This document shows, piece by piece, positions 53,959 to 55,978 of a DNA stretch of 64,000 nucleotides. Each line of letters begins with the position of its first letter. The first letter of the stretch is position 1. The stretch lies in assembly GCA_028684095.1 (NCBI GenBank), contig JAQUGQ010000004.1:4937-68936 (forward strand), given 5' to 3'. The stretch comes from Clostridia bacterium. GTDB taxonomy: Bacteria > Bacillota > Clostridia > TANB77 > CAG-465. The notes under the pieces are model-generated. The model worked only from the letters and a program-made list of their open reading frames with translations, had not been told where the DNA came from and ran no database searches. The position numbers and the translations under genes were made by a program.

Positions 53959-53987
53959 TTGACTTTTATGTAATAAAATGTTATAAT
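53959..53987 (+). promoter_or_regulatory. Near-consensus extended -10 sigma-A promoter (TTGACT-17-TGnTATAAT)
   Basis: TTGACT at 53959-53964, TG at 53979-53980 and TATAAT at 53982-53987. Confidence 0.6.
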
Positions 53988-54081
53988 ATATTTGAAAATT
54001 TATATAATATGCTACATTTAATAATTTAGTAGCATGTAATCATCGAAGAACAAATATTTTATTAAAAGGGGTGAATGTAAA

Positions 54082-54891
54082 ATGAGGGGAAGGTTGTATC
54101 GGTTAACAGTTGTATTGTTATCCATCATTCTCGTTTTGATCATTCTATCAACCGCTGAAGATTTTTTCAAACAACCAAAGATGCAGGATTACGGTAAATT
54201 AGTTGTAAATACTAATGCTGATGGAAATGTATTAGCTACAAACAGATTAGATAATACAACATTAAAAGTAGAATATGCTAAAGATAAGGATAAATATACT
54301 TTGTATCGGGATGATGTTGAGTATAGTTTATCTGCGACAAAGTATGGCAATAATTTAGTTGTAGATTTAAATGAAGCAAGTACTAAAAACTATGAAGGGA
54401 TTGTTGTTGGACAATGTCCCCTAGCAATTCCTTTGGTTTTATGGACACCAGCTCTTATAGAAGCTGCACAGTTGACTATTTCAGCTACAATAGCAGTTGT
54501 AGGTACTTACACAGTATGGTATTCTATTGATTCAATTGAAAAAGCAATTGTTTCAACTAAATCAGATGTAAAGGTACAAGAAAACGAACAATCAAAGAAA
54601 GTTACAGGATATTATGCGGCTGTTCTAGTAGGAGGTAAGGTTGCTATAAATAGGCCAATAACGTATGCTGAAGCAGTAACTAGATTGATAGCAGGTATGG
54701 ATGTGTTTGCTACCAGTAAAATGGCTGCCAGTAGTGCGTCATTTGCTGCAACTGCACCTAATCAAAAGGCTGTATTTCATCTTCCACATGGTGGTGGAGA
54801 AGGATTTTATCCACATTTTCATCCGGGTGGAAGAAATTGGATAAATAATAAAAATTATCTACCTCATTGTTGGTTTGGTGTTACTCCTTAA
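54082..54891 (+). CDS. Membrane-anchored protein with an internal hydrophobic segment and a His-rich C-terminal domain (candidate toxin/effector)
   Basis: An N-terminal signal anchor, a hydrophobic stretch at 54409-54528, and the C-terminal motif HLPHGGGEGFYPHFHPGGRNW...LPHCWFG. No family name assigned. Confidence 0.6.
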   Translation: MRGRLYRLTVVLLSIILVLIILSTAEDFFKQPKMQDYGKLVVNTNADGNVLATNRLDNTTLKVEYAKDKDKYTLYRDDVEYSLSATKYGNNLVVDLNEASTKNYEGIVVGQCPLAIPLVLWTPALIEAAQLTISATIAVVGTYTVWYSIDSIEKAIVSTKSDVKVQENEQSKKVTGYYAAVLVGGKVAINRPITYAEAVTRLIAGMDVFATSKMAASSASFAATAPNQKAVFHLPHGGGEGFYPHFHPGGRNWINNKNYLPHCWFGVTP

Positions 54892-54936
54892 AGGTTTGTT
54901 ATGATATTAAATACATTTATGAAAGGGGGATAGATT

Positions 54937-55218
54937 ATGCGTATTATAGTTGGATTTGATTGTTATGCTAAAATAGTGGAATGTGATAATTTAAATCTAT
55001 CACAATTTCCAGAATTACTTGAAAATTTCAAAGAATGGCTCTATGTGGAAAATGAAGGTTGCCTTTGTATTAAGAAAAGTCTAAATGTTGAAATTTTGGA
55101 TATATCTGTTGTACTTAGATTTTTAAATGAAAATTACCCTGATTTTAATGCAAGGGTAGTCAATGATTACATTGTAATTGAAAATATTGATGAATCTCTA
55201 CCAATTATTGCTTTATAG
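54937..55218 (+). CDS. Small acidic cytoplasmic protein (candidate immunity/antidote)
   Basis: A 93-aa ORF with the SD aaggggga directly after the toxin-like gene. Confidence 0.5.
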   Translation: MRIIVGFDCYAKIVECDNLNLSQFPELLENFKEWLYVENEGCLCIKKSLNVEILDISVVLRFLNENYPDFNARVVNDYIVIENIDESLPIIAL

Positions 55219-55233
55219 GAGGTAGGTATCATT

Positions 55234-55932
55234 ATGTATAAAGATAATCAAAAAAAATCTTTACTAACCAAAGTTATACTAATTATGATTTTATTTGTTA
55301 TCAGTTGCTTAGTTATTATGTTTCAGCAATATAAACAAAAAGAAGTAGTTAAAATAGGAATCATTGATAGTGTATTAGAGGATAAGTACTTGTCAGAATA
55401 TAATGTCATTTATGCAAAAAAAGTTTCGACAGATACTCAAATAAATGATCATGGAAGTAGCGTTTTATCTATAATCAAACAAGAAAATGATGCTCAAATA
55501 TATTATGCTTCTATTTTAGATAGTAAGTTAGAGGCAAATATTAATGATGTAGCTAATGCAATATATTGGTGTATTAAAAATAATGTGGATATTATTAATA
55601 TGAGTTTTGCAACGACAGAAGATAATCCTTTACTCAAAGAAGCAATACAATATGCATTAAGTAAGAACATTATAATAGTTGCTTCATGTATAAATTATTA
55701 TGATGGTTATTCATATCCTGCAATGTATAATGGTGTAGTGTCTGTTTCTAATGGCGATTTCAGTAAATCAACTTTAGTCGTAAAGAAACAGATATACAAG
55801 GTTAAATTATTAAATGGTAACGTTATTAAGAATGCTAGTACATCTTGTGCTACAGCTTATGTGACGAATCAAATATCGTTGGAACTTGCGGGTAAAAGAA
55901 AAGAATGTGTTGCTAACCTTATACAAGACTAG
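55234..55932 (+). CDS. Miniature membrane-anchored subtilisin-like (S8) serine peptidase
   Basis: An N-terminal TM segment is followed by an ordered Asp-His-Ser catalytic set. The elements are GIIDS (Asp), NDHGSS (His), INMSF, ASCIN (oxyanion Asn), YPAMYNGVVSVSN and ASTSCATAY (GTSxA-type Ser). The protein is only 232 aa. Confidence 0.65.
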   Translation: MYKDNQKKSLLTKVILIMILFVISCLVIMFQQYKQKEVVKIGIIDSVLEDKYLSEYNVIYAKKVSTDTQINDHGSSVLSIIKQENDAQIYYASILDSKLEANINDVANAIYWCIKNNVDIINMSFATTEDNPLLKEAIQYALSKNIIIVASCINYYDGYSYPAMYNGVVSVSNGDFSKSTLVVKKQIYKVKLLNGNVIKNASTSCATAYVTNQISLELAGKRKECVANLIQD

Positions 55933-55941
55933 AATTATTTT

Positions 55942-55978
55942 AAAGAGATTAAAGTGAATTACTTTAACCTCTTTTTTT
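55942..55978 (+). terminator. Operon terminator
   Basis: The stem is aaagagattaaagt / actttaacctcttt (one mismatch), followed by a T7 tail. Confidence 0.7.

Follow-up and report, generated by a model that had tools for sequence, protein, structure and literature searches.

Operons that encode an S8 peptidase together with a toxin and an immunity protein have been described as S8-PTS (Li, Tan & Zhang 2022, PMC9424270). The same work described the BetaH domain, which is about 120 aa long and has an acidic seven-stranded sheet around a central amphipathic helix, and reported that the peptidase is sometimes encoded downstream of the immunity gene. Its toxin domains include S8-VOC1, which is paired with a ferredoxin-like immunity family and consists of one VOC-like module (beta-alpha-beta-beta-beta) that is extended at the N-terminus and has four conserved His clustered on the sheet (PMC9424270); the activity of S8-VOC1 was still listed as unknown in a 2026 review (PMC13460014). 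The genes were renamed abpP, abpT and abpI (Colautti, Garrett & Whitney 2025, PMC12582261). In the ABP systems tested, the whole toxin protein is secreted with its helix buried in the carrier, AbpP (whose catalytic Ser is Ser205 in S. aureus) cleaves AbpT at the sheet-helix junction (between Gln159 and Ala160 in C. casei), and the freed amphipathic helix with its cationic toxin is lethal to diverse Gram-positive bacteria, an effect that requires the proton-motive force (PMC12582261). The published ABP fragments have mean isoelectric points (pI) of 4.1 for the N-terminal and 10.7 for the C-terminal part (PMC12582261), and a study of the S. aureus S8-Ntox35 locus came to similar conclusions (Mwangi et al. 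2026, PMC13556192). The published distribution of ABP systems is mainly Bacillales and Actinomycetota, and neither the PNAS paper nor the 2026 review contains the string "Clostridi". Here we describe a three-gene locus in a 64,000-nucleotide stretch of DNA from a Clostridia bacterium (contig JAQUGQ010000004.1; we call the whole stretch the window), which is very likely a self-contained toxin-immunity-protease cassette that works like these S8-PTS/ABP systems (abpT-abpI-abpP).

The locus consists of three open reading frames (ORFs) of 269, 93 and 232 aa (genes 1, 2 and 3) in the same orientation on the + strand. A good ribosome-binding site (Shine-Dalgarno sequence) precedes each of them, and we found all three as the initial annotation of this DNA had described them. 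That annotation had suggested a protease-matured secreted effector with its antidote, and both the comparative evidence and the literature agree with it. It had also been unable to assign the locus to any characterised family; here we reach a different conclusion, as the system can be assigned to the S8-PTS/ABP logic, which dates from 2022 and was put to the test in 2025-26. The assignment is carried by the gene content, the conservation of the cassette, the toxin-tip nature of the gene 1 C-terminus, the affinity of gene 3 to AbpP, its intact catalytic residues, an invariant Gln in gene 1 and the complementary charges of the products. Like ABP loci, this one encodes a predicted Sec-exported toxin, a small, putatively cytoplasmic partner beside it and, in the same operon, a predicted exported S8 peptidase that has no I9 pro-domain.

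The N-terminus of gene 1 is a predicted Sec export signal, either cleaved or anchoring (19-residue Kyte-Doolittle peak of 2.58), and distant homologues have AxA-type or lipobox-like signal ends. The carrier region that follows is acidic (pI 4.8-4.95) and occupies the place that the BetaH beta-sheet has in the protein layout; an AlphaFold2 (AF2) model has beta strands there at low confidence. The segment of residues 112-171, which is the most conserved stretch of gene 1 and the predicted N-terminus of a released fragment, has predicted helices at 125-139 and 149-158 (AF2), and it is partly covered when RHS toxin tips and the B. cereus ABP toxin are aligned by hidden Markov model (HMM). Gln111 stands directly before the helix and is the sole invariant residue near the junction (25/25 diverse gene-1-like proteins). 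Canonical Bacillus toxins have ..Q/AS.. at the sheet-helix junction (marked by the slash), in the same place as Gln111, which also corresponds to Gln159 of C. casei AbpT. The earlier idea that gene 3 cuts gene 1 near its hydrophobic segment agrees with this invariant Gln, whose position before the helix resembles that of the mapped AbpT site (PMC12582261). The predicted helix-plus-toxin fragment would have about 158 aa and a pI of about 8.9, and over the relatives the mean pI is 4.7 for the N-fragment and 8.9 for the C-fragment; the order of acidic N-part, central helix and cationic C-terminal toxin is that of ABP toxins.

A long hydrophobic segment and a membrane toxin-like nature had been proposed for gene 1. 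We found that the segment is present but that its hydropathy is marginal, with Kyte-Doolittle values over 19 residues that peak at 1.72 (at up to 2.0 in L011 and below 1.6 in L009; L numbers denote related loci), and that it bears charged residues in L011 and L012. Because it is only marginally hydrophobic and is charged in distant homologues, it is not a clear transmembrane segment, and we favour a buried helix over a membrane anchor. The match in position between this stretch and the buried central helix of the ABP carrier makes a membrane toxin an improbable reading of gene 1. Neither gene 1 nor gene 2 matched a Pfam or NCBIfam family, and a sequence search of the PDB with the full-length gene 1 profile gave no match. 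The full-length AF2 model, built from 18 close sequences, reached a predicted local distance difference test (pLDDT) score of 53 and was poor in the carrier region, and the Foldseek result obtained with it is meaningless. A 259-aa "hypothetical protein" of Paraclostridium sordellii plasmid pCS1-6 (L034, 3009-3788) matches the gene-1-like profile from end to end, in signal peptide, carrier, helix and toxin domain; Arg replaces Gln before its helix.

The C-terminal domain of gene 1 (pI 9.8) has the tail HLPHGGGEGFYPHFHPGGRNW...LPHCWFG, exactly as the initial annotation quoted it. Five His and one Cys in this tail had been read as a metal site, and in the wider domain family this stands for three universal His (H245 100%, H247 100%, H262 99%) and for H236, which is mostly conserved (78%), but not for H233 and C263, which are confined to the close clade. 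Searching 1.84 billion representatives with a profile, we obtained 137 relatives, which matched residues ~150-266 of gene 1. In these proteins, which are of all sizes, the domain is always at the extreme C-terminus, and its carriers include RHS-repeat proteins of 500-2059 aa; this placement, including that in RHS-repeat proteins, indicates a polymorphic-toxin tip. The same domain ends toxins of canonical loci. The B. cereus "SAR2788 family" toxin WP_048538480.1, which belongs to a canonical S8-toxin-immunity locus, ends in it (72 bits), and an Exiguobacterium protease-toxin-immunity locus has a toxin with this ending too; the proteins encoded downstream of these two toxins are homologous to each other (2e-13). 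The full-length gene 1 profile aligned with the B. cereus toxin in a collinear but weak manner.

We modelled the toxin domain with AF2 from a 76-sequence alignment and obtained a pLDDT of 91 and a predicted template modelling score of 0.85, with the topology b-b-a-b-a-b-b-b. Foldseek gave no significant match for the model in PDB and BFVD; its weak top neighbours belong to the VOC superfamily (extradiol dioxygenases including 1HAN, and a C-As lyase). No match came from a PDB sequence search with the profile of the domain, and no family from a Pfam scan of the 76 members. The confident model, the weak VOC neighbours and the four conserved His fit the published description of S8-VOC1 (PMC9424270), which appears to share with our domain the small single alpha+beta module, the four His on the beta-sheet, a weak structural resemblance to VOC-family enzymes (1HAN, for example) and the occurrence in BetaH-type toxins. 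We conclude that the domain is probably S8-VOC1, a single VOC-like module, on the strength of the published description and not of a reference sequence. Two other readings of the His motif, as JAB/JAMM (H-x-H-P) and as HNH, were rejected, as the S-x-x-D or helix elements are absent and neither has fold or Pfam support. A stand-alone 127-aa protein of a Terriglobia metagenome-assembled genome (MAG; L007, 2337-2720), outside Bacillota, consists of little beyond the four-His domain and has no obvious carrier.

RHS/YD-repeat toxins resemble gene 1 in that a hydrophobic-helix-plus-four-His unit forms the toxic tip and a small partner gene follows. Two RHS toxins with the four-His tip have ORFs of 188 aa and 178 aa directly after them, which are homologous to each other (5e-8), a pattern expected of a cognate immunity family. 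However, in RHS toxins the tip is encapsulated by the YD/RHS repeat shell, which has a DPxG autoproteolytic core, and an internal aspartyl protease performs self-cleavage, whereas here a carrier of about 85 aa is combined with a separate subtilase, and the RHS partner families are unrelated to gene 2. Gene 1 itself has no RHS repeats according to Pfam; only its C-terminal unit is common to RHS proteins. The 178-188-aa family that follows the four-His-tip RHS toxins (L013, 10189-10755; L015, 2861-3397) has no Pfam match, shows the motif W-x-[FY]-P...DLCF[FY]..G......[ST]HE and is a candidate new immunity family.

Gene 3 matched Pfam Peptidase_S8 (3.5e-11) and, below their cut-offs, the NCBIfam models of QhpE (2e-26) and mycosin (8e-13). 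Its catalytic domain of about 195 aa aligns with residues 24-237 of subtilisin BPN' and is clearly shortened, and the catalytic residues D45, H73, N154 and S204 occur in order and are invariant across seven orthologues that share only 34-54% identity. The earlier description of S8 elements in order within a small protein is thereby borne out, and the degenerate triad that would have spoken against it is not seen. From its residues, gene 3 appears to be a miniature and apparently active subtilase, and we predict an exported, membrane-anchored S8 peptidase of AbpP type. When we searched 72,556 plasmids (PLSDB) with gene 3 by tblastn, the top matches were S8 genes on plasmids of Priestia, Bacillus and Alkalihalophilus (34-37% identity). 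Each of these genes immediately precedes the gene of a "SAR2788 family putative toxin" (NF038340) and a small ORF, in the canonical ABP arrangement. Gene 3 is thus closest to canonical AbpP, with which it shares motifs including GI.WCI and N(I/M)SF; its catalytic Ser204 compares with Ser205 of S. aureus AbpP (PMC12582261). QhpE and mycosins are likewise small S8 peptidases that lack an I9 pro-domain and serve one dedicated substrate, and they are the best NCBIfam matches of gene 3, but gene 3 scores far below their cut-offs and no gene for quinohemoprotein amine dehydrogenase or type VII secretion lies nearby. A Clostridium perfringens plasmid (L026, 2636-4244) encodes a 303-aa S8 peptidase, 30% identical to gene 3, after a 235-aa secreted protein with a Gly/Ala-rich hydrophobic end; these two may be a protease-substrate pair of another kind.

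The initial annotation had described gene 2 as acidic, without a signal and in the position of an immunity protein. We found that the product has a pI of 4.2, a net charge of -9.5 and no hydrophobic N-terminus, that the gene always lies between toxin and protease within the trio, and that the acidity of its product is complementary to the pI of 9.8 of the toxin domain. Its family comprises 68 clusters, all of 52-122 aa and unnamed, and a Pfam scan of seven members found no family. Homologues of gene 2 without toxin or protease also exist, among them one tandem pair; such orphan and tandem copies are typical of immunity genes, yet they are no proof. On the basis of position, charge and orphan copies, gene 2 is probably the immunity protein, in the position of AbpI. 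The similarity of gene 2 to the 95-aa neighbour of the P. sordellii gene and to the 171-aa protein downstream of the B. cereus toxin is not significant. Orphan homologues are found in L016 (5001-5282) and L019 (4425-5321); an orphan lies after an HD-domain protein and before a GNAT acetyltransferase, and the tandem pair lies beside FUR and ZnuA genes.

Close relatives of gene 1 are few (18 among 5.8 billion proteins), and the relatives are found on metagenome contigs (one from pig gut) and in two Clostridia/Bacillota MAGs. In L001-L004, the trio is present in the same gene order within dapF/dapB-to-yabP synteny, a shared position that could stem from relatedness alone. Distant gene-1-like proteins (~30-45% identity) carry the same trio amid unrelated flanks: it adjoins a cation ATPase in L009/L022 (pig gut), a VCA0040-like gene in L011 and a TetR regulator gene in L021, and it has unrelated flanks in L012 as well. 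Altogether, the tricistronic linkage of toxin, immunity and S8 peptidase genes is found in the window and nine further loci, in five genomic contexts. The initial annotation had proposed co-occurrence of the three genes in other genomes as a check, and the trio is indeed found elsewhere, in the same order and in unrelated contexts. Since it recurs in at least five unrelated contexts, we regard it as a cassette and not as a sporulation unit; the sporulation-gene neighbourhood is incidental. A narrower alignment used to seek related loci returned three JGI loci only. One candidate, L008 (Pseudomonadota), was a false positive that arose from an off-frame match in a high-GC gene on the opposite strand.

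By analogy with the published systems, from which we take it where the cut would lie, that it activates the toxin, that the toxin enters target cells and that gene 2 gives immunity, the cassette would work as follows. Gene 1 would be exported through Sec as an inactive pro-toxin, in which the acidic beta-rich N-domain would shield the helix and a basic linker would join the helix to the cationic enzyme domain. Gene 3, a small subtilase tethered at the outer face of the membrane, would cut after Gln111, just before the helix. The freed helix-plus-toxin fragment would insert into the membrane of neighbouring Gram-positive cells and then enter, and damage inside the target would be done by the four-His domain, which is probably a VOC-like metalloenzyme of one module (S8-VOC1). 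Gene 2 would remain in the cytoplasm, where it would bind and neutralise toxin that reaches the producer's own cytoplasm. Compared with canonical ABP loci, the order here is toxin-immunity-protease instead of mostly protease-toxin-immunity, the catalytic domain of gene 3 is about 50 residues shorter, the gene 2 family is not the canonical immunity family, and the host belongs to an uncultured Clostridia lineage; the C-terminal domain of gene 1, in contrast, is common to the canonical B. cereus SAR2788 toxin. Colicins such as colicin N and colicin D are also diffusible, combine a carrier, a translocation element and an enzymatic C-terminal domain and have a cognate acidic immunity protein, but they share no homology with the locus and differ in the Sec export predicted here, in proteolytic activation and in the receptor-independent entry of ABP systems.

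Several results weigh against an assignment to ABP systems. The carriers of gene 1, L009, L011 and L012 gave no match to NF038340 (SAR2788/BetaH), which canonical toxins match at 2.9e-58 and 3.2e-57. An hhalign comparison of the carrier with canonical BetaH reached 73% probability with signal peptides included and less than 1% without them, so we rejected it as a sign of homology. The full-length AF2 model is poor across the carrier and offers no check of the seven-strand-plus-helix fold. The C-fragment, at pI 8.9, is less cationic than the published mean of 10.7; the S8-VOC1 identity of the toxin domain is drawn from a description; and the gene-1-like toxin of the P. sordellii plasmid has no S8 gene within 3.5 kb. 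Compared with canonical AbpP, gene 3 lacks about 35 N-terminal residues, the APG-motif strand and about 25 C-terminal residues, and its proteolysis is predicted from its catalytic residues. Gene 2, finally, has no detectable similarity to the 171-191-aa family encoded downstream of Bacillales toxins with this domain or to the 178-188-aa family that follows RHS toxins. The Exiguobacterium toxin, which belongs to a locus of canonical layout, likewise does not carry the SAR2788 name. Taken together, BetaH membership of the carrier is unproven, its physical features all fit, and the cassette is probably a divergent ABP member. There is a modest chance, which we think unlikely to be borne out, that the carrier is unrelated to BetaH and that the combination of carrier, buried helix and toxin with a mini-subtilase has arisen or been rebuilt more than once. 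If so, the four-His unit, which is also RHS cargo, would be countered by at least three unrelated partner families and may hold an undescribed metal-dependent toxic chemistry.

Other explanations differ from this one mainly in where the toxin domain acts and on what. The internal hydrophobic stretch, with its peak of 1.72 here and up to 2.0 in L011, could place gene 1 in the membrane as an integral protein, the N-domain outside and the toxin domain in the cytoplasm, where gene 2 would restrain it until cleavage by gene 3 releases or activates it, as a suicide or abortive-infection toxin-antitoxin module; gene 2, which has no signal peptide, would share the compartment of the toxin domain. We consider this quite improbable, as the stretch is below the transmembrane threshold in L009 and charged in L011 and L012, the helix-plus-domain unit is cargo of secreted RHS and ABP toxins, and the equivalent ABP helix is buried in the carrier of a wholly secreted protein (PMC12582261). 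It is also improbable that the four-His domain is a secreted, non-antibacterial metalloenzyme acting on a small molecule or host material, with gene 2 as its chaperone or regulator. The weak fold neighbours of the domain are VOC enzymes, which are mostly metabolic, and gene 2 is not homologous to the other downstream families seen with the domain; however, the domain tips many RHS proteins and ABP toxins, each with a small partner gene after it, and the acidic gene 2 opposite a basic domain, like the orphan gene 2 copies, fits immunity genes.

A link to sporulation, in which protease and substrate would serve forespore/mother-cell signalling or coat or cortex assembly, is suggested by yabP, yabQ and divIC, which the trio adjoins in the window and in L001-L006. 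We regard it as very improbable: the trio has its own sigma-A-like promoter and its own terminator, its neighbours are unrelated in L009, L011, L012 and L021, and the shared synteny reflects close relatedness only. We give hardly any credence to a role in the maturation of a peptide that is made by ribosomes and modified after translation (RiPP), or of a cofactor, with gene 3 as a QhpE-like leader peptidase acting on a modified precursor. QhpE is indeed its best NCBIfam match, yet the score is 92.6 where the family (NF049966) has a cut-off of 165, canonical AbpP proteins match QhpE and mycosin equally below threshold, the cassette has no radical-SAM enzyme, flavoprotein or small Cys-rich precursor, and no qhp genes lie nearby.

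The signals around the operon (Table 1) were for the most part as the initial annotation had described them. Its near-consensus extended -10 promoter is the best promoter-like site of the region in a consensus scan (11/12 matches, TG present). Promoter-like sites are no commoner in this AT-rich DNA than in shuffles (20 observed, 19.4 expected), so the stronger argument for the promoter is that its -35, TG and -10 are all kept in five orthologous loci (L001, L002, L004, L005 and L006). The inverted repeat in the 5' untranslated region (UTR) is retained in orthologous loci with two compensatory pair changes, and its folding energy is weak; it may act as an RNA hairpin in regulation or serve as an operator. 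The terminator, which had been called strong, is present as a hairpin of 14 pairs followed by U7; the hairpin is AU-rich with one internal mismatch and folds at -10.6 kcal/mol (z = -3.28 against shuffles); it is a plausible terminator of moderate strength. A consensus terminator scan detected no terminator at the operon end, because the hairpin has few G-C pairs and one mismatch. Pfam matches agree with the location between dapF and yabP-yabQ-divIC: DAP_epimerase (7e-66) on the - strand upstream, and YabP, Spore_YabQ and DivIC downstream. We found no paralogues of genes 1-3 elsewhere in the window.

Table 1. Coordinates of the locus and its parts, numbered from the first letter of the window
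Feature	Position	Strand	Basis or remark
Promoter, sigma-A-type, TTGACT-17-TATAAT with TG extended -10	53959..53987	+	top-scoring scan site; kept in orthologues
Inverted repeat ATGCTAC...GTAGCAT, 7-bp stem, 5' UTR	54009..54035	+	read from sequence; orthologue conservation
Gene 1, 269 aa	54082-54891	+	ORF
Gene 1 residues 1-25, Sec signal peptide or signal anchor (..LSTA/ED)	54082..54156	+	hydropathy
Gene 1 residues 26-111, acidic beta-rich carrier (pro-)domain, invariant Gly/Ala-Gln end	54157..54414	+	
Gene 1 residues 112-171, hydrophobic/amphipathic helical segment and Lys/Glu-rich linker	54415..54594	+	
Gene 1 residues 172-269 and stop, cationic C-terminal toxin domain (H236, H245, H247, H262)	54595..54891	+	
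Gene 2, 93 aa	54937-55218	+	ORF; acidic, putative immunity gene
Gene 3, 232 aa	55234-55932	+	ORF; S8 peptidase
Gene 3 catalytic residues D45, H73, N154, S204	55366-55368, 55450-55452, 55693-55695, 55843-55845	+	
Intrinsic-terminator-like hairpin (55942-55974), then U7	55942..55981	+	folding

Other features of the window lie close to the locus. A few kb upstream, 40158-51375 is a polymorphic-toxin region with a 2490-aa ORF, a 278-aa ORF with a weak Imm3 match, and a 681-aa RHS/FG-GAP fragment that has a hydrophobic pre-toxin stretch and a C-terminal tip and is directly followed by a 132-aa ORF; it looks like an RHS toxin with an array of orphan tips and immunity genes, and its tips are unrelated to the gene 1 domain. 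At 51702-52782, two overlapping ORFs of 188 aa and 178 aa, the second a Peptidase_M23, may be a frameshift-split gene or a true two-gene arrangement. Downstream of divIC, 57376-63637 encodes a single-module non-ribosomal peptide synthetase (NRPS) with a terminal reductase domain and then a HisKA_7TM sensor kinase; both are conserved in the syntenic loci L001 and L002, and a similar NRPS lies near the orphan gene 2 homologue in L016.

Before the ABP/S8-PTS toxins, no diffusible protein antibiotic had been shown to kill Gram-positive bacteria over a broad range. The principle has already been published, and what is new here is a compact clostridial variant, with a carrier that cannot be recognised by sequence, a trimmed protease, a putative immunity family and a four-His domain shared with RHS toxins. 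The link between this S8-VOC1-like domain and RHS toxins provides several independent toxin-partner pairs for studying the function of the domain, and the small self-contained three-gene system would be useful for testing protease-gated toxin entry in anaerobes. The locus and its relatives would extend the ABP principle to anaerobic, spore-forming Clostridia, and would add to it a stripped-down protease, a compact carrier domain and a new candidate immunity family.

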